From contig JAKFCY010000002.1 of assembly GCA_036676395.1 (NCBI GenBank), positions 2,144,001 through 2,208,000 of the forward strand: 64,000 nt of DNA, read 5' to 3'. Shown here in pieces: positions 51,757-58,859 of the stretch. The notes under the pieces were generated by a model, which made no database searches, was not told where the DNA came from, and worked only from the letters and a program-made list of their open reading frames with translations. Both the position numbers and the translations under genes were made by a program. Positions within the stretch are counted from its first letter, which is position 1. Every line of letters begins with the position of its first letter. The DNA is from Bdellovibrio sp. GTDB taxonomy: Bacteria > Bdellovibrionota > Bdellovibrionia > Bdellovibrionales > Bdellovibrionaceae.

Positions 51757-52743
51757 ATGTATAAAAAAATTATCATCAATCTAGCAATGGCAATGGTTAC
51801 GCCACTAGCGTTCGCTAACACTTCATATGACGGTGTGTCGCTGGCTGCCGCTGCAGATTCAAGTTTTTATATAGAGACTCCGGTGGCCGCAAAGCTAACT
51901 TTATTTAATCAAGATGTGACCGGCAATATGTCAGTCAGCAAACAAATCACAGTTCCAGAGAATTCAATCTTAGCGGTGAATTTATCAACGTTTGCAACGC
52001 GCGTGAATAGCGACTGGGTGTGCGGAATTCGTGTAGTCGACGTTCAAGATGAAGATCTTCGTGAATCAGATGTCGCTGACGAAACTGATTTTTGTATTCG
52101 TACTGCAGATGTTAAAAAAGCTGGATTATTAGATAGTTCAAATGGTTTAAATAAAGAAGCCTTTCTTAAATATCAAAAAACGGGTCAGCTTTCTGAATTA
52201 CATGATCTTGGTGCTTTTGCTGCACATATGGCGTCTTCAGAAAACAATTACCAAGTCTTTAAATCAGCTGCGACTAAAAGTAGTAATATGATTAGCCCGC
52301 TTAAAAACTGTAGTGTTGGCTGTTTAGCAGTAACAAGTGAATACGGCATGCGTAAACATCCGGTTCACAAAACTAAACGTTTGCATAAAGGCATAGATTT
52401 ACGCGCAAGAACCGGAACCCAAGTCGTGAGTGTTTATGATGGCAAAGTTTTAGCGACTCGTACTGAGCGTAATGCAAGAACTAAAAAAATGAAGGGCTAC
52501 GGTCATTACGTGATCGTGATCCACCCAACACGTCAGATTGAAACTTTATATGCGCATTTATCTGCATTTAAAACTTCAGCCGGTAAACCAGTAACTCAAG
52601 GTCAAACGATTGCTTTATCTGGTAACACGGGTGTAGGCACTGCCCCGCATTTACATTTTGAAATTCATGTGAAGAAAAATCGCAGCTACGTTCCTGTGAA
52701 TCCAAGATCGTATGTTACTAAAATGTTAAACGTGAATCTTTAA
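51757..52743 (+). CDS. Exported M23 metallopeptidase
   Basis: HKGID, GYGHYV, YAHLS, SGNTG..TAPHLHFEI; signal peptide. Confidence 0.92.
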   Translation: MYKKIIINLAMAMVTPLAFANTSYDGVSLAAAADSSFYIETPVAAKLTLFNQDVTGNMSVSKQITVPENSILAVNLSTFATRVNSDWVCGIRVVDVQDEDLRESDVADETDFCIRTADVKKAGLLDSSNGLNKEAFLKYQKTGQLSELHDLGAFAAHMASSENNYQVFKSAATKSSNMISPLKNCSVGCLAVTSEYGMRKHPVHKTKRLHKGIDLRARTGTQVVSVYDGKVLATRTERNARTKKMKGYGHYVIVIHPTRQIETLYAHLSAFKTSAGKPVTQGQTIALSGNTGVGTAPHLHFEIHVKKNRSYVPVNPRSYVTKMLNVNL

Positions 52744-53533
52744 TTGAACGGGCTGACACTTCTCTTTGTAGCGAAGCCCATGCATTGATGCACTGATATC
52801 CCCAACAAGTGACTAAAGACTCACGAAAGAATAAGTAATTTTTTGGGGTGCACGAATAACCAGTTTCGAACTCTTGAAATTCGTTAATGCATAAAAAATA
52901 ATTCAGTTCATCTTGCGCACGTTTATAGTTAGTCCATTCTTTATGATCTGCATCGCTTGTTAAAAGTAACATGGCTATTTGATCTTCGAAAATAAATGCG
53001 GCACTTTCAGAACCTAATTCATCAGTAGGATGATCTAACTCGTACAACGCATGCCCAAGCTCATGAGCAAAACAAATAAGATTGCCATATGTTGGCTTAT
53101 TATTGCCCCGAATAACGTACCCAGTACTTCGTGGAAGCGTATAAAATTCGGGACTAGACAAATCCAGCATGGCATTTTCAATCAGAATATTTATTTCAAT
53201 TAGGCGTGGATGGTCTTTTAACAATTCTTTTAAACTAGATTTAAGGTCATTTGTTAGATGTTGTGAAAAAAATAAAGGCGGCTTAAGTGTTGGGGGAAGC
53301 AAACCTAAATTAGCAGAATCCATTAAATTTACTAACTGCGATTTTAACTCTGTTAGCATAGGAAACACCCAGCCTTTTTTAATAAGACTTAACCTTAGAA
53401 TTTCACGGCTTACGAGAACCTCTTTTTCGATGGGTGTTAGTTCGTTTTTTAACCAACGTCTTGGTTCAAATTGCATCTTTTGATACATTTCTTGAATTGA
53501 AACTGAAGTCGCGTAAATCACACAAAACTCCAT
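52718..53533 (-). CDS. HExxH zinc-metallopeptidase-like protein (truncated M3/gluzincin-like)
   Basis: CFAHELGHALY with a downstream ESAAFIFE third-ligand helix. Confidence 0.55.
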   Translation of the reverse strand: MEFCVIYATSVSIQEMYQKMQFEPRRWLKNELTPIEKEVLVSREILRLSLIKKGWVFPMLTELKSQLVNLMDSANLGLLPPTLKPPLFFSQHLTNDLKSSLKELLKDHPRLIEINILIENAMLDLSSPEFYTLPRSTGYVIRGNNKPTYGNLICFAHELGHALYELDHPTDELGSESAAFIFEDQIAMLLLTSDADHKEWTNYKRAQDELNYFLCINEFQEFETGYSCTPKNYLFFRESLVTCWGYQCINAWASLQREVSARSIKDSRLTF

Positions 53534-54060
53534 TCAGATATTAGAGTCAGACGTTCAACTTCTTTAACAACGGGCGAGACGCTGTGAAAAGATTTTTCAG
53601 AAAAAGGCAATACCACAAGTGTATTTGGTTTGGGCTGAATCGTGTTTTCTAAAATAAAGTGTTTGTTATTTTTACTCCAAATTTGAAGGTTTCCACCCAT
53701 TCCAGATCTCCATTCGGTCAAATGTAAAAACACACCTGCATTAAAACCGCAATCTGCGTCAGTATGGATAGGCACACCATTTGTTATTCCTTGGGTACAT
53801 CGCAACTGCGGAACAGAACCTTGATGCCTTTGCACTCTGTTTTTCAATAAATCCTGTAAAACTTGGCGCATATCTTTACCGATCATTTTACGCAGGACTT
53901 CGGTATTACTAACTAATCCATAACGATCGTGATGTTTGGGGTTAGTTTCCCACTGAACAGAGCTTAGGGCTGCTTTTTTAATAAAATGGTAACTCTCTTC
54001 GGAAAAAAAGTTCTCGATAATAAAATAAGGATACGGATTACTGTAGGCTAAGACTTTCAT
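53518..54060 (-). CDS. 2OG-Fe(II) oxygenase
   Basis: PYPYFIIENFF, HxD (IHTD), W...GGNL, SFHSV, RLTL. Confidence 0.85.
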   Translation of the reverse strand: MKVLAYSNPYPYFIIENFFSEESYHFIKKAALSSVQWETNPKHHDRYGLVSNTEVLRKMIGKDMRQVLQDLLKNRVQRHQGSVPQLRCTQGITNGVPIHTDADCGFNAGVFLHLTEWRSGMGGNLQIWSKNNKHFILENTIQPKPNTLVVLPFSEKSFHSVSPVVKEVERLTLISEWSFV

Positions 54061-54844
54061 GATCCCCACCCGCTGCTTTCATAATTTTTAGTACTTCTAA
54101 ATTACCGGCATGATTCTTTATCGCCGGAACATAAAGTGTTGTCGAAAAGTTGATTTGAGACTTCAATTGATCGACTTGATCTACGGTATAATAATTTACA
54201 CTCGATTTATCACTTGCTGAGTTAGCGGCTCTAACTAAAGCTATCGGATGATCAGCAGAATAAAACTTTAGCAAATATACTTTAAGCAGATCTAACCGAT
54301 TACCATCGCCTGCGCCTTGATAATCGGCTACTGGATTTGCAACTGAACACACATGATAAAAGAAATGGTCACTCTGTATATTGATCTTATGCTCGAACAG
54401 CAGCGCTCGGTTAATATCAATTAAGCTTGATCCGTTTTCTAGAATATCTAATTCTAATACATTTGCCATAACATCAAAACTAGAAATGCCTTCGAATACC
54501 TGAACTAGCGTTTGCTTTTGACGGCCCCACGTTTCTAAAGCTTTTGTCAAAAACACGCCTAAACGCGGATGACCAGCAACGATGAAACTTACCTGTTCAA
54601 ACTGAGCAACAGTTTTAATGATTGTCTTCATCATGTCTTTATAATTTTCAAGATCGGTGCGGTCAGTTTTGTAATAGGGGTTTAAATTCACCATTACCTG
54701 ATTGCCAGGAACATACTGTTTAATGATCGCTTCCGATGTTTCAATAAAGCAAATAGCTTTACTAGCCTGAATTTGAGCCAGAGCTTCTAAGGTAATTTGT
54801 GTAAATCTTTTAGTACCGATGCCTAGGATATTTAACTTTTTCAT
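54038..54844 (-). CDS. Borosin-type (tetrapyrrole-methylase fold) SAM-dependent methyltransferase
   Basis: LNILGIG..QITLEA, NL..YY......NY..M, AGHP, EGISSFD..LELD....G; matches the OphMA/SonM layout. Confidence 0.75.
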   Translation of the reverse strand: MKKLNILGIGTKRFTQITLEALAQIQASKAICFIETSEAIIKQYVPGNQVMVNLNPYYKTDRTDLENYKDMMKTIIKTVAQFEQVSFIVAGHPRLGVFLTKALETWGRQKQTLVQVFEGISSFDVMANVLELDILENGSSLIDINRALLFEHKINIQSDHFFYHVCSVANPVADYQGAGDGNRLDLLKVYLLKFYSADHPIALVRAANSASDKSSVNYYTVDQVDQLKSQINFSTTLYVPAIKNHAGNLEVLKIMKAAGGDHESLSLQ

Positions 54845-55083
54845 GATTTGCCTTCTGGTTATAACGAACCGTTTGTCTTCAAGGCTTATTTCAAAGGTGA
54901 TACCAATCCGCATCTATATATAAGTAGGCTATATTTCAGTTCACCTATTTGAATTCCGGGTTTTAAGAAAGTATTCCGAAAATCCGGATAAATTTCGAGC
55001 CAGATCGATTTTATCAAGGCTAGAAATCCGGACAAAGAGGCATAGTACTTGGAATAGTGTTTATCAACTAACAAGGAGTACAC

Positions 55084-55242
55084 ATGAACCATAACCAAAA
55101 CACAGAAACTGAAATCACTGTAAACCAAGCCGCATTAGAGCTTAGAATTGAAACTGAAGGCCCTAGCGTTGTTCGACGTTTACTTAATGTGATTCCAGTC
55201 GACATCGAAGCACTTCTTAAAGAATTAGACGAAGAAGTGTAG
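55084..55242 (+). CDS. Unannotated 52-aa putative RiPP precursor peptide
   Basis: AAGGAG RBS 6 nt before ATG; MNHNQNTETEITVNQAALELRIETEGPSVVRRLLNVIPVDIEALLKELDEEV; followed by a strong hairpin and then the transporter and modifier genes. Confidence 0.75.
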   Translation: MNHNQNTETEITVNQAALELRIETEGPSVVRRLLNVIPVDIEALLKELDEEV

Positions 55243-55245
55243 TTT

Positions 55246-55277
55246 TAAAATGGGGATCTGAAAAGATCCCCATTTTA
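55246..55277 (+). terminator. 14-bp perfect stem-loop after the precursor gene (leaky terminator / mRNA stabiliser)
   Basis: TAAAATGGGGATCT-GAAA-AGATCCCCATTTTA. Confidence 0.8.
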
Positions 55278-55313
55278 TTGATTTTGGATTCAACGAATAA
55301 TACGGAGAAAAAA

Positions 55314-56606
55314 ATGAAATTTTTTATTAACTCAAAACAGTTTTTACACCTAAGCCTAATTACTTTAATTCAGCAGATGATGGTTGCAGGATCGACTTAC
55401 TTTTTAATTAAACTTACCTCTTCGCAAAACAATCCCGAGAATTTTTTAATTCAGCTATTTGGTTTCTTAGCATGCTTAACGCTGGTCTACTTACCGGTCT
55501 CTCTACAAAAATATTTTCAAGATAAATGGGTTCTTTCAGTTCAGAAAAAATATTTATCTTTATTTAGAAAAAATTACTATGGCCGCATTGATTTACTTGG
55601 AAACGCAAATACTGAAAACGAAAAATTTGGCTTTATGCAAAGAGAAGCTTTTCATGTTATTGATCAAGTCACGTTTTATTGGAGCGATTTACTAACGACT
55701 TCATTAAATGTTGTTCTGAATATTTTAGTTATTGGTGCAGTGCTGGATAAGTCTTTTTTTAGTGCTTACTTTGCCAGTTTTGTAGTTTATGGAATTCTTG
55801 CGACAGTATTTGCTAAATTTATTGAAAAATGGAGCATTGAAAATCAAACGGCTCGTGTTACTCATTCAAGCCTGTTGAATAAAATTTGGCCAACGCTATT
55901 AATTGGCAACCGTATCAATAACGACCAATTATTTAGCTCAGAAGAATCTAAATTTGCTGATTTGAATTCTTCATTGTTAAACAATCGCCGTAAAACTGAA
56001 GCTGTTCAACTTATAACAACCTTACTAACCATGGCTCCAGTCATTGGCTTACTCGTTTATACTATGATTCAAAATTTGCAAAATGCAATGATCTTAGTAC
56101 CCTTGATAGCCACTTTACATCGTCAGGTTCAAATCATTCAACACATCGAAGTTATTGGAACACTTGGCTTACATTATCATTCGATGACGGCTCTGTTAAA
56201 TGGGTTTTTAGCAAGCCTTGAAGCTCCTGAAAAACAACAGCTTAGTCAGCGCATGCAACCCGCACTAATTCGTGTTCAAGAAAATAACGGTCGCACGTTA
56301 GTGACAGGCCCAAATGGTGCCGGAAAATCCACGTGGTTAAAGATCAAAAAAGAAGAACTAGGCGACAAAGCGATTTATATTCCGGCAAAAATGGATATTT
56401 TCTTTAAAGATATTTCTGACGAAATGTCGAGTGGCCAACGTGCTATGGCTATTCTAAAAAATATTGAAACTTCAGATTGCAAAGACCAAGTTTTTTTATT
56501 GGATGAGTGGGATGCCAATTTAGATGCTAACAATCGTGAAGCTTTAGAATTAGTTGTGCAAAAGCTCGCTGAAAACAACAGTGTCTTCGAAGTTCGCCAT
56601 GCCTGA
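55314..56606 (+). CDS. Compact ABC exporter (TMD + very short NBD)
   Basis: About 6 hydrophobic segments, then GPNGAGKS, MSSGQ, FLLDEWDANLD and a terminal H-loop VRH. Confidence 0.8.
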   Translation: MKFFINSKQFLHLSLITLIQQMMVAGSTYFLIKLTSSQNNPENFLIQLFGFLACLTLVYLPVSLQKYFQDKWVLSVQKKYLSLFRKNYYGRIDLLGNANTENEKFGFMQREAFHVIDQVTFYWSDLLTTSLNVVLNILVIGAVLDKSFFSAYFASFVVYGILATVFAKFIEKWSIENQTARVTHSSLLNKIWPTLLIGNRINNDQLFSSEESKFADLNSSLLNNRRKTEAVQLITTLLTMAPVIGLLVYTMIQNLQNAMILVPLIATLHRQVQIIQHIEVIGTLGLHYHSMTALLNGFLASLEAPEKQQLSQRMQPALIRVQENNGRTLVTGPNGAGKSTWLKIKKEELGDKAIYIPAKMDIFFKDISDEMSSGQRAMAILKNIETSDCKDQVFLLDEWDANLDANNREALELVVQKLAENNSVFEVRHA

Positions 56607-57267
56607 AGTATCTATAGAATTTCTACTCGCATTGGGTATAAATGGGTATCAACAAATTACTCCAAAAGCTGAATGCAAACTACGCTTGCAGCAATCAATG
56701 GATCTGATTTATGAGCTGCCGACTGAACTAGTCTGTCTGCAATCACTTTTCACAGATGAACTTAAAGAAGTTATTTGGCTGCAAGCGATAAGTAAAGACA
56801 CTCCGACATTTGCTTCAGCGGCCTATCCAGAAGTACCTGGTAAAGTTTTTGTGACAACAGCATTATTTTATTATGTTCCGCCAACAACAGCTACGCTAAT
56901 TACTAATACATATTTTGCTTTTGAAAATATGATTCATGAATGCCTTCACCATCGTGGTGAAAAAATATTTACCGCATCGCCGCTACTAAGAGACTTAATG
57001 AAAAGCAGTGCTGAAATTAGTGTGTCTTGGCGGGCAACAACTTGGAGTTTTTCTCACGCCATTCAAGCTTACTATGTGTATCTTTGGATATTTAAACTTC
57101 GCCAATGGCGCTCGAACGATGTAAGCGAAAAAATTGAAATTCGCAAAATTCTGTCACAGTCATTGAATGATGTAAGTGTTATTATTAATGAACTTGAAAT
57201 CCAACTAAGCCAGATTTCGAAGGTCTCCCCTATTGAATTTCGTGCTTTACTAGAGAATCAATTTTAG
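56599..57267 (+). CDS. aKG-HExxH-type peptide beta-hydroxylase-like protein
   Basis: FASAAYPEVPGKVFV, ENMIHECLHH, SWR..W...AIQAYYVY; ATG 56599 overlaps the ABC stop codon. Confidence 0.7.
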   Translation: MPEVSIEFLLALGINGYQQITPKAECKLRLQQSMDLIYELPTELVCLQSLFTDELKEVIWLQAISKDTPTFASAAYPEVPGKVFVTTALFYYVPPTTATLITNTYFAFENMIHECLHHRGEKIFTASPLLRDLMKSSAEISVSWRATTWSFSHAIQAYYVYLWIFKLRQWRSNDVSEKIEIRKILSQSLNDVSVIINELEIQLSQISKVSPIEFRALLENQF

Positions 57268-57376
57268 TTAAACAACTAAAACCTAAATCAAATCACACAC
57301 TTGATTCACCAATTACCTCCTACCGCTGTTTTGTGCTATAATATCTAGTACAGCAGACTTACAGATAGGAGGACTT

Positions 57377-57592
57377 ATGGATTCAATGCGAATACTTATT
57401 GATACCGCAAAAGGACTGCTAGCTCTAGGCTTAATCATGTTAGGATTGTGGTTATTTGGCCAATCATTACTTATTATTTATGCGACCCTAGGAGACAACA
57501 TTGGCTTTCTTGCCTTAATTCCGACTGGCTTAGTGGTAGCGTACTTAATCGGTCACGCGATCACCGCGCAAAAAGATATTACCCACTACTAA
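57377..57592 (+). CDS. Small 2-TM membrane protein
   Basis: AGGAGG RBS; extended -10 TGCTATAAT upstream; paralog of 51141..51257. Confidence 0.75.
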   Translation: MDSMRILIDTAKGLLALGLIMLGLWLFGQSLLIIYATLGDNIGFLALIPTGLVVAYLIGHAITAQKDITHY

Positions 57593-57599
57593 ACACTGA

Positions 57600-58859
57600 C
57601 TAAAACAGATTCCAGAACTGGTTTGCGCTCCAAAATTTCAAATTCACGACGCGTGAACCAGTTCCTACTTTATCAGCAAGCTTATCGTCGGCAAATATGT
57701 TTATGGTGTAGTCTTTTAAATTCGGAGTGCCCGTAAGCTTGTTCATATCACTCTCGACCATTCCGCCATGGTTATCATCGACTTCATACCCGCCTAAGAT
57801 AGAACCTTCTTTAACCCGCTCTAAAAATGTTTCTTTAGGTATTTTAGTAAAATCAATTGAATCATGCGCATAAATTCCCGACACCGGTAAATGAATTGTG
57901 AGTGGCTCTTGGCTTACCAGAAAATGTCTGGTGATAGCGTCTAACTGACTGGTGCGAAGGCACTGGCTGTAAAAACCACCCATCATGATGACCGTGTTAG
58001 TGCTTAATACCGAATGTTCACCATTTTTTGAAAAATAAGCTCTGGTCGGATTTTTATCAGCTAAATACCAAGTTTGATCATGTACTCCGTCATCACTGAC
58101 TAAGTACACCACTGGCAAACCGCGCGATTTGGCGTGCTGAATAGTTGCATCAGCAAAAGTCTTAATCGATTTTTTATCGAAGATAGTTGTCGCATGAGTC
58201 ACCAGAACTAAAGGTTTTGTGATAATTGGGTCATGACCGGCATAAGCTTTTTTATCAAATTCTTTTAAAGTTCCATCTAACAAGGCATTTCTAAATTCAG
58301 CATTTCTATACCATTCAAATTCACGCTTATTGTCTAAGGTGTAATTCACTAATTGATTCAGAGCCATTATCGCATCAGCTTTAACTTGGTAATCGGGCGC
58401 ATTGTAATCTGTATAAATTGAGTTTTTATTTAAATGAAATAATACTTTTTTGAGTTGTGGTAATTCGGGAGTTAAGAATTTTTCTAAGGCCGGGTACACA
58501 ATCGTTAAAGCATCGTTGTCTAATTTTAGACAATTAAATTTGGCCCACATGGCTTTATCATCAATCGTGTCTAAATTAATCGTTAATTCTAAAACGCCCG
58601 CTTGCAGAGATTGATCACAAGTGCTCTTAAAACTGTAGTATTCATGTTTTGTTGAATAATTTAGCCAGAATTCACGTTTACCGTAACGATCGCCTTCAGC
58701 ATCACGTCTTTGGCGATACCACAGCTCATAGGGTTTTAACGGCGCATAAGGCTTGATAGACACTTTTAACACGCGATCCGTTATAACAGCCTTAACCTCA
58801 GCATGAGCTGAGGTAAGCCATAATCCGATCGTTAAAATTGCAAAAATCAAGTGTCTCAT
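57600..58859 (-). CDS. Exported hypothetical protein with possible isochorismatase-like C-terminal domain
   Basis: Signal peptide (..AHA-E); AKSRGLPVVYL and VIMMGGFYSQCL..DA resemble cysteine-hydrolase motifs. Confidence 0.5.
   Translation of the reverse strand: MRHLIFAILTIGLWLTSAHAEVKAVITDRVLKVSIKPYAPLKPYELWYRQRRDAEGDRYGKREFWLNYSTKHEYYSFKSTCDQSLQAGVLELTINLDTIDDKAMWAKFNCLKLDNDALTIVYPALEKFLTPELPQLKKVLFHLNKNSIYTDYNAPDYQVKADAIMALNQLVNYTLDNKREFEWYRNAEFRNALLDGTLKEFDKKAYAGHDPIITKPLVLVTHATTIFDKKSIKTFADATIQHAKSRGLPVVYLVSDDGVHDQTWYLADKNPTRAYFSKNGEHSVLSTNTVIMMGGFYSQCLRTSQLDAITRHFLVSQEPLTIHLPVSGIYAHDSIDFTKIPKETFLERVKEGSILGGYEVDDNHGGMVESDMNKLTGTPNLKDYTINIFADDKLADKVGTGSRVVNLKFWSANQFWNLF

Follow-up and report, generated by a model that had tools for sequence, protein, structure and literature searches.

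Could two divergent, tightly packed gene arms around a 52-residue open reading frame (ORF) make up a complete pathway for a modified peptide in a Bdellovibrio-like predator? The arms lie within a 64,000-nucleotide stretch of a Bdellovibrio sp. genome (contig JAKFCY010000002.1, positions 2,144,001 to 2,208,000 of the forward strand), which we call the window and in whose coordinates positions are given below. A first-pass annotation had read the locus as a cluster for a peptide made by ribosomes and modified after translation (RiPP), with genes to hydroxylate, methylate, cleave and export it. Our analysis supports the RiPP-type reading: the peptide gene is co-conserved with the enzymes, and each of the family guesses held up under testing. 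We consider it likely that a borosin-like methyltransferase forms the centre of a RiPP-type biosynthetic island here, one that is self-contained and horizontally mobile.

The two divergent arms hold six ORFs, and when these were re-located in the sequence, all of them, together with the hairpin and the 52-residue frame, were found at the positions claimed for them:

52718-53533, minus strand: HELGH metallopeptidase-like protein, 271 residues, a putative precursor-trimming peptidase
53518-54069, minus strand: 2-oxoglutarate (2OG)-Fe(II) oxygenase, 183 residues, prolyl-hydroxylase-like (OGFOD1/PHD)
54038-54844, minus strand: stand-alone borosin-like S-adenosylmethionine (SAM) methyltransferase of the TP_methylase fold, 268 residues
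54845-55083: divergent intergenic control region, 239 bp, with direct repeats and the ribosome-binding site of the precursor
55084-55242, plus strand: precursor peptide ORF, 52 residues
55246-55277, plus strand: intrinsic-terminator-like hairpin, 14 bp followed by a T tract, between the precursor and ABC genes
55314-56606, plus strand: ATP-binding cassette (ABC)-type protein, 430 residues, a putative exporter
56599-57267, plus strand: alpha-ketoglutarate (aKG)-HExxH-type oxygenase, 222 residues, an optional tailoring enzyme
52746-57276: accessory island, as delimited by comparison with a close relative

The genes of the left arm overlap by 32 and 16 nt, and the start of the HExxH gene overlaps the stop of the ABC gene by 8 nt. 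The methyltransferase frame is open to 54913, and its likely start is the ATG at 54844 behind AGAAGG, which agrees with the start of all methyltransferase homologues. Likely starts were also placed at ATG 55314, behind GGAG, in the ABC frame (55278-56606) and at ATG 56599 in the HExxH frame (56554-57267), the latter giving 237 residues if TTG 56554 is used. Ahead of the precursor, AAGGAG stands 5 nt before the ATG at 55084, in accordance with the strong ribosome-binding site first described there. This layout is more than chance: the gene set and the short ORF recur, changes in the DNA of the peptide tail are synonymous, and the position of the hairpin is kept.

How regularly does the peptide accompany its presumed enzymes? 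We searched 390 genomes of the class with peptide and methyltransferase profiles. The methyltransferase profile matched in 11 genomes, and in all 11 the peptide, methyltransferase and ABC genes are adjacent. The neighbourhood comparison proposed in the first-pass annotation thus found a related peptide gene beside every methyltransferase, and no enzyme set devoid of a precursor-like ORF was seen. The locus thereby shows the generic feature of a RiPP cluster, a short precursor gene co-conserved with peptide-modifying enzymes. The 2OG oxygenase and HELGH peptidase genes were present in 5 of the 11 genomes and the aKG-HExxH gene in 3. Because the peptide, the methyltransferase and the ABC protein occur in all 11, we regard these three as the core module and the oxygenases and peptidase as add-ons. 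The gene set proposed for hydroxylation, methylation, cleavage and export recurs in other genomes, with the qualification that the aKG-HExxH gene is an optional part of it.

All six genes are syntenic in Bdellovibrio sp. HCB337. Two further loci of the same genus (L011 and L012) have the peptide, ABC, methyltransferase, 2OG and HELGH genes but lack the HExxH gene; in L012, the ABC gene is followed by an unrelated convergent gene. In a high-G+C genome of another genus (G151, locus L013), the whole set is found at 27-42% identity as one colinear operon, in the order peptide, methyltransferase, 2OG oxygenase, HEAGH protein, ABC protein, HExxH protein and second 2OG oxygenase. The last of these is a paralogue located after the HExxH gene (L013:14416-14958). 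Six further genomes have a minimal cassette made up of a 35-39-residue peptide, the methyltransferase and the ABC gene (L026-L031), without an oxygenase and without a peptidase. These cassettes are found in genomes labelled at source as Bdellovibrio bacteriovorus and relatives (e.g., L026:9029-9139 and L027:10396-10509), and their peptides follow the pattern GP..PRCL.T[LI]PLDIEEILK.FE, with a Cys (PRCL) where the close peptides have RRLL. Among 61 related genomes, only the one from which the window comes has the HExxH protein, and it is missing from all 36 other genomes sampled from the genus.

Is the 52-residue frame a real gene? A search of 5.8 billion proteins returned 9 homologues of 50-56 residues, and in the resulting 10-sequence alignment residues 30-49 and 51 are identical (VRRLLNVIPVDIEALLKELD.E), while the N-terminal half varies. 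In the peptide of the window, the variable part covers residues 1-25; the C-terminal half runs G26-P-S-V-V-R-R-L-L-N-V-I-P38 and continues into a helix, D40-IEALLKELDEEV. Four loci, one in the window and three in other genomes, encode the same last 23 residues, although the 69 nt that code for them differ at 10-15 positions per pair, all of them synonymous. Since the DNA of the tail has changed only synonymously, the short ORF is a real gene under purifying selection, and a chance ORF was rejected on this evidence together with the identity of the tail in 10 sequences. The hidden precursor-like frame of the first-pass annotation is thus confirmed as a gene.

The peptide profile matched 4 of the 390 genomes at E ≤ 1.5e-26 and a diverged form in a fifth (G151, E = 2.2e-4). 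Weak matches in three others (G265, G138 and G031; E = 0.004-0.009, two with internal stops) were treated as chance because those genomes have no methyltransferase match. All 12 peptides compared, from three subfamilies, share M1, R32, L34, P38 and L45; G26 and I41 are near-invariant, and the lengths in the family range from 35 to 56 residues.

What kind of enzyme is the methyltransferase? PF00590 (E = 1e-8) was the sole Pfam family seen. In a search of PDB sequences, all 25 of 25 matches were borosin peptide N-methyltransferases (OphMA at 4.6e-16, dbOphMA, MroMA, and SonM at 5e-4), so that the fused borosins and SonM are its best and sole strong relatives there. A profile of the 45-sequence subfamily matched the borosin N-methyltransferases at 8e-42 to 4e-33 and the best other methylase, of the tetrapyrrole type, at 7e-7. 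Judged by sequence, the enzyme is a member of the borosin peptide N-methyltransferase clade, as had been thought. Homologues carry the source annotations 'SAM-dependent methyltransferase' or 'YabN'; an identity as a tetrapyrrole methylase or YabN was rejected on the figures just given.

The clade comprises at least 111 clusters at 90% identity. Its source names include Bdellovibrio bacteriovorus, a Lysinibacillus, a gammaproteobacterial metagenome-assembled genome (MAG) and 'Ca. Symbiodolus', which indicates that it is not confined to Bdellovibrio-like bacteria. A metagenome search with the methyltransferase alignment returned one 2.2-kb contig, which carries the peptide and methyltransferase as a pair. 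In the 45 sequences, Y58 and Y68 are invariant and D64, N67, R146 and H164 near-invariant, within a clade signature of Y58, D64, N67, Y68, N145, R146, Y163-H164 and C166-S167. The GHP motif of the SAM site is kept (G91 and P93 invariant, H92 near-invariant), and OphMA Y76/SonM Y71 corresponds to the invariant Y68 in HMMER alignments that are ungapped around the active site. The methyltransferase matches of three loci (L021, L024 and L025, in G106, G079 and G122) contain 1-3 stop codons, probably where the match ends past the ORF.

Does the peptide bind this enzyme? A model of the methyltransferase-peptide complex gave a median ipSAE of 0.80 (runs at 0.65, 0.80 and 0.86), with the best control at 0.00; of 157 solved complexes, 116 reach the ipSAE mark applied, as do 2 of 215 mismatched pairs, counts that hold only roughly with our own alignments as input. 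At least 51% of the contacts are shared between runs, and the pLDDT of the partner is at least 51. The model puts the 28-48 stretch of the peptide into the cleft of the methyltransferase; peptide residues 28-39, 41-42, 44-45 and 48 contact the enzyme, including Y58, D64, Y68, N145, R146 and H164. Residues 33-36 lie against Y68, D64, 96-99, N145, 163-164 and 169-171, and residues 41 and 45 against helix 101-106. Taken together with the conservation pattern, the model suggests docking through the C-terminal helix, with R32-V36 as the substrate segment.

On the two proposed oxygenases, the first-pass annotation fares well. The 2OG enzyme matches the Pfam families 2OG-FeII_Oxy_3/4 with scores of 35.5 and 34.8 bits, above the cut-off of 27 (PF13661 at 1.4e-8 and PF13640 at 3.2e-8), and the facial triad H102-x-D104...H162 is invariant in 6 sequences. 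Searched against PDB, its profile best matched OGFOD1 (4nhx, 5.9e-19, positions 3-177), followed by PHD-type prolyl hydroxylases. As prolyl hydroxylases are its closest relatives, the invariant Pro38 or Pro27 is a natural candidate target. The NCBIfam model NF041706 (YhhC) was also matched at 3.2e-8 and 33.4 bits, below its equivalog cut-off of 150.

The HExxH protein, with 6 homologues in 5.8 billion proteins, matched TIGR04267 (IPR026337) weakly (E = 0.0017, 18.3 bits, cut-off 40). H113, E114, H117, H118, R119 and H153 are invariant in 7 sequences. Its profile found nothing meaningful among PDB sequences (best E = 0.29). The fold supports the proposed aKG-HExxH identity: the model (pLDDT 88.8) had chains of 8s5f, the aKG-HExxH domain of ChlB, in the top four Foldseek rows (E = 5e-5 to 1e-4, probability 1.00, TMq 0.67-0.68), followed by 22ob, SjiH. 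For this family, the available text of one paper (PMC12636437) describes the beta-hydroxylation of Asp, His, Gln and Asn side by side with oxidative C-terminal cleavage.

The HELGH protein matched no Pfam or NCBIfam family, and its sequence had no meaningful match in PDB (best E = 0.42). Its family has 85 representatives in 1.84 billion proteins. Among 64 relatives searched against Pfam peptidase models, one matched M32 at E = 0.0046 and one M78 at 0.0022, with none better than 0.001, and H157, E158, H161 and E176 are invariant in these 64 sequences. The invariant Glu176 lies in an SE..A...E helix, as in the M3 and ACE gluzincins. The model (pLDDT 93.2) gave weak rows alone in Foldseek (best E = 3.4e-3), and in a VIA search the top 14 rows were all M3/M2/M32 peptidases (Z 14.8-9.7, root-mean-square deviation 3.7-5.4 Å, 239-260 of 271 residues aligned), although the arrangement of helices by itself can lift a mostly helical model to Z values of about 13-14. 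The peptidase reading is preferable because the conserved HExxH and Glu sit in the aligned helices. Accordingly, the M3 peptidase proposed in the first-pass annotation stands as to its M3/M2/M32 fold and invariant HExxH+E but not as to membership of Pfam M3, and we describe the protein as a half-size M3/M2/M32 (neurolysin/ACE-like) fold and a putative precursor-trimming peptidase. The two HExxH proteins of the locus as paralogues of one another were rejected (hhalign probability 0.1).

The ABC-like protein consists of an N-terminal membrane domain with at least four hydrophobic segments and a nucleotide-binding domain of ~110 residues, which contains Walker A (GPNGAGKS), SSGQ, Walker B (LLDEWD) and a terminal RH. 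About 40 residues separate Walker A from the SSGQ signature. There was no PDB sequence match. Look-alikes in the Atlas (446-497 residues, score 0.98-0.99) are mostly unannotated, with ABC_tran on 18-29% of the members. Full-length homologues occur in 10 of 10 other loci, at 62-70% identity in the close and 25-28% in the distant ones. The motifs and the conservation fit the exporter proposed earlier, whereas the HMM scores are below cut-off and the nucleotide-binding domain is unusually short; we regard the protein as a putative compact exporter of the peptide.

Could expression of the two arms be tuned to the needs of such a pathway? The hairpin at 55246-55277 has 14 pairs, a 4-nt loop and a T-rich tract after it; its folding energy is -21.3 kcal/mol (z = -4.45), a stability that 0 of 200 shuffles attained. 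Of 12 loci, 11 have a stem-loop of unrelated sequence after the stop codon of the peptide gene: all 5 of the close or related loci and 6 of the 7 that are more distant. The stem-loop of L030 is weak, and in L013 4 of 200 shuffles fold equally well. The hairpin noted after the short ORF is therefore well founded. A terminator scan of 52000-58000 found 5 sites against 4.6 expected, which is no overall enrichment, and weight is placed only on the position and conservation of this hairpin. Its recurrence after the peptide stop fits an attenuator that favors the precursor message, and we consider it a probable attenuator that raises the ratio of precursor to enzyme. The control region contains two direct copies of AAATCCGGA[T/C]AAA, 44 nt apart (54980-54992 and 55024-55036). 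The region shows partial conservation across four loci, with related TCGGACA and CCGGA elements lining up in the three loci other than the window, and the repeats may be the binding site of a regulator. One weak sigma-70-like site was predicted on the minus strand at 55035-55008.

The same locus was compared with a same-genus genome (G018), whose flanks match at 91-93% identity up to window position 52745 and again from 57277. Between the flanks are 4531 bp in the window and 532 bp in G018, the latter holding a gene for an XRE-type helix-turn-helix protein of ~105 residues (L032, G018:C8:28900-30000). The block 52746-57276 is thus a discrete accessory insertion without a counterpart in G018, and its edges coincide with the six genes. 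Because G018 carries other cargo at this place, the site appears to be a variable hotspot. We propose that the island is self-contained and horizontally mobile.

Several observations weigh against the proposed RiPP-type island. The match of the HExxH protein to the aKG-HExxH model is below the curated cut-off, as are all ABC scores from hidden Markov models (HMMs) for the putative exporter (ABC_tran 18.8 bits against 25, CydD 31.9 against 435). The HELGH protein is a fold-level relative of M3/M2/M32 only, at half their size, and a shared fold shows no activity; furthermore, cleavage may not be obligatory in the family because the minimal cassettes lack any peptidase. In the precursor, conservation is strongest in the C-terminal half whereas the N-terminal half varies, opposite to the leader-core pattern that is usual, which makes the position of the core uncertain. 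As for the complex, solved structures of SonM-SonA and OphMA exist, and the success of the model may reflect likeness to them. Finally, OphMA R72/SonM R67 aligns to the near-invariant D64 in both single-sequence and profile alignments, OphMA Y63/SonM Y58 to N55 (S in the profile consensus) and Y98/Y93 to A90, so that, in this sequence alignment, Y71 alone of SonM Y58, R67 and Y71 has a kept equivalent. SonM Arg67 is essential, and R67A is inactive, according to the available text of that study (PMC8429565). Because Asp64 replaces this essential Arg and Y63 and Y98 are not kept, backbone N-methylation is not assured.

The active site raises the most serious alternative, namely that the pathway is of the RiPP type but its methyltransferase does not act on backbone amide nitrogen; it may instead methylate a side chain (Arg32 or Asn35) or a terminus, or serve mainly as a peptide-binding scaffold. 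Besides the lost Arg and Tyr residues, the clade's own conserved signature and the invariant Arg beside the bound segment of the substrate fit this possibility. On the other hand, some 27 orders of magnitude in E-value separate the borosin N-methyltransferases from the next methylase, the invariant Y68 (SonM Y71/OphMA Y76) and the GHP motif remain, and the model sets the peptide backbone at residues 33-36 against Y68 and D64. The near-invariant R146 or R32 of the substrate could stand in for the missing Arg. We hold the alternative to be possible, if unlikely. The backbone N-methylation of the first-pass annotation accordingly keeps its support from clade membership, not from a canonical catalytic Arg.

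An improbable alternative concerns the HELGH protein, which might be a second HExxH non-haem-iron oxygenase or an inactive, peptide-binding pseudopeptidase. The available text of one paper relates that aKG-HExxH oxygenases, with their zincin-like fold, were long mis-annotated as metallopeptidases (PMC12636437); the HELGH family is without a Pfam model, and the model aligns to 8s5f and 22ob at Z 5.0-5.5. However, the M3/M2/M32 peptidases score far above 8s5f, which reaches Z 5.0 over 118 residues, the third invariant residue is Glu176, and the profile comparison points to no relation with the aKG-HExxH family. Least probable of all, the small protein would be a partner or regulator of the enzymes (an adaptor, inhibitor or intracellular signal) and the ABC protein not its exporter, a view that draws on the invariant C-terminal half, unusual for RiPP cores, the atypically short nucleotide-binding domain with scores below all curated cut-offs and the cassettes without a peptidase, but that has to contend with a peptide traveling with four types of peptide-modifying or -cleaving enzymes with intact catalytic motifs, a gene that, as is typical for precursors, has a strong ribosome-binding site and an attenuator hairpin, and a methyltransferase whose closest characterized relatives all modify a ribosomal peptide. 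Invariant cores, moreover, are known for cofactor-like RiPPs.

How would the RiPP-type island work? We infer the chemical steps, their order, the cleavage site, the peptide's export and its biological role as follows. The arms would be transcribed divergently from the 239-bp spacer, and the terminator-like hairpin would yield more message for the precursor than for the downstream enzyme. The precursor would then dock on the methyltransferase via its invariant C-terminal amphipathic helix (approximately residues 39-48), which would take the role of the borosin-binding domain of classical split borosins. This would place R32-L-L-N-V36 in the active-site cleft for methylation, presumably of backbone amide nitrogen by analogy with borosins. 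In this subfamily, the OGFOD1/PHD-like oxygenase would oxidize the peptide, most likely at a prolyl residue (Pro38 or Pro27), and the aKG-HExxH oxygenase, where present, would hydroxylate a side chain or possibly cleave the C-terminus oxidatively. The minimal M3-fold zinc peptidase would trim the peptide, and the compact ABC protein would export it.

A more far-reaching version, tentative and rather doubtful as a whole, joins these elements into a RiPP family that would be undescribed and span phyla, with at least 111 clusters of methyltransferases and the island as its most elaborate member. A C-terminal 'follower' helix (P-x-D/N-I-E-x-[IL]-L-K) on the 35-56-residue precursor would replace the borosin-binding domain, and the Arg-to-Asp swap, with substrate Arg32 or enzyme R146 completing the active site, would amount to substrate-assisted backbone methylation. 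The Bdellovibrio-like subfamily would also prolyl-hydroxylate its peptide and trim it via a new minimal family of M3-fold peptidases. The invariant product would have a single, fixed target; it could, for instance, be a signal within the predatory life cycle and not an antibiotic that diversifies.

How does the island compare with known systems? Split borosins of type IV (SonM/SonA from Shewanella oneidensis; PDB 7LTC among others) likewise have a stand-alone TP_methylase-fold enzyme of ~260 residues beside a short precursor gene, and here the adjacency in all 11 genomes is joined by a predicted complex. Compared with SonM, R67 is replaced by Asp and the equivalents of Y58 and Y93 are not Tyr, while that of Y71 is kept as Y68. 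Unlike SonM and OphMA, the present system leaves no room for the five-helix borosin-binding domain, judged by size (35-56-residue precursors and a 268-residue enzyme that is the methylase domain alone), and a single C-terminal helix appears to dock. The cluster is best filed as one that appears to work like a split borosin but without the active-site definition of that family.

Borosin mining has distinguished types 0-X, with a five-helix binding domain in most systems (bioRxiv 10.1101/2024.01.09.574750; bioRxiv 10.1101/2021.12.24.474128), and split borosin clusters lacking this domain, with short motifs of their own, in Legionellales (bioRxiv 10.1101/2024.01.09.574750), to the extent of the available text of these papers. 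Because such clusters are published, the domain does not appear to be strictly required. The Legionellales systems, compared here by the description in the available text, share with the island a split methyltransferase without a borosin-binding domain but differ from it in origin, the island family being found, by source names, in Bdellovibrio-like genomes, Lysinibacillus, a gammaproteobacterial MAG and 'Ca. Symbiodolus'. In comparison with borosins, the island adds two types of oxygenase, an M3-fold peptidase and a compact ABC protein; the available text of the borosin papers compared mentions none of these.

The accessory enzymes have relatives of their own. Those of the HExxH protein are the HExxH domain of ChlB (8s5f), its best fold match, BpmH and PflC/PosC; the island enzyme is encoded in a RiPP-type cluster, and HExxH and a further downstream His are invariant in its own family. 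Compared with ChlB, the island enzyme is a stand-alone protein of 222 residues (chains of 8s5f have 320-342) with 13% identity and without a radical SAM or MNIO partner. The 2OG profile spans nearly the whole catalytic domain of OGFOD1, in the company of Tpa1 and PHD-type prolyl hydroxylases, and the island enzyme is a single domain of 183 residues; YhhC, the 2OG oxygenase from clusters for cyclophane peptides, matches weakly over the full length. The HELGH protein has the fold and the HExxH/Glu arrangement in common with M3 oligoendopeptidase F, M32 carboxypeptidase Taq and M2 ACE but is about half their size (489-1201 residues in the rows shown), with a shorter spacing of 15 residues between HExxH and Glu. 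A 2023 review of RiPP leader peptidases lists the metalloprotease families M1, M16, M61, M103, M50 and M79, and its available text contains neither 'oligoendopeptidase' nor 'M32' (PMC10885120).

We found no published report that pairs borosins with Bdellovibrio in the main texts searched, the general Bdellovibrio and RiPP literature not having been surveyed. Literature searches for split borosins or SonM with 2OG or HExxH enzymes returned nothing pertinent, and likewise for borosins with a precursor and an ABC transporter. No published description of this type of pathway was thus found, and supplementary tables of the borosin papers may list these methyltransferases.

Some features of the surroundings deserve mention. 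The insertion site lies between the gene for an M23 peptidase and that for a 71-residue membrane protein, and G018 has alternative cargo there. At their 3' ends, the HELGH gene and the convergent gene for the M23 peptidase (51757-52743) share 26 nt (52718-52743), and the island junction (52745/52746) is right at the M23 stop codon. Just outside the island, 57600-58859 encodes a secreted-looking protein of 419 residues, which is also present in the flank of G018 and has no Pfam or NCBIfam match. In L011, a fragment of an IS3-type transposase (L011:12955-13173) is found ~450 bp past the peptidase gene, near the end of the contig.

What would such a cluster mean? Designers of peptide drugs value backbone N-methylation highly, and the only known ribosomal route to it is, to our knowledge, that of the borosins. 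A clade without the bulky binding domain, with a substrate of 35-56 residues and a simple docking helix, would be an attractive scaffold for engineering, and its Arg-to-Asp active site bears on how borosin enzymes activate the amide nitrogen. Furthermore, the cluster contributes a family of minimal M3-fold peptidases as well as an aKG-HExxH enzyme that stands alone and has a defined candidate substrate, and it is a good lead for genome mining. For the biology of the Bdellovibrio-like bacteria themselves, an invariant exported peptide could be a first handle on peptide signaling or prey-directed chemistry.

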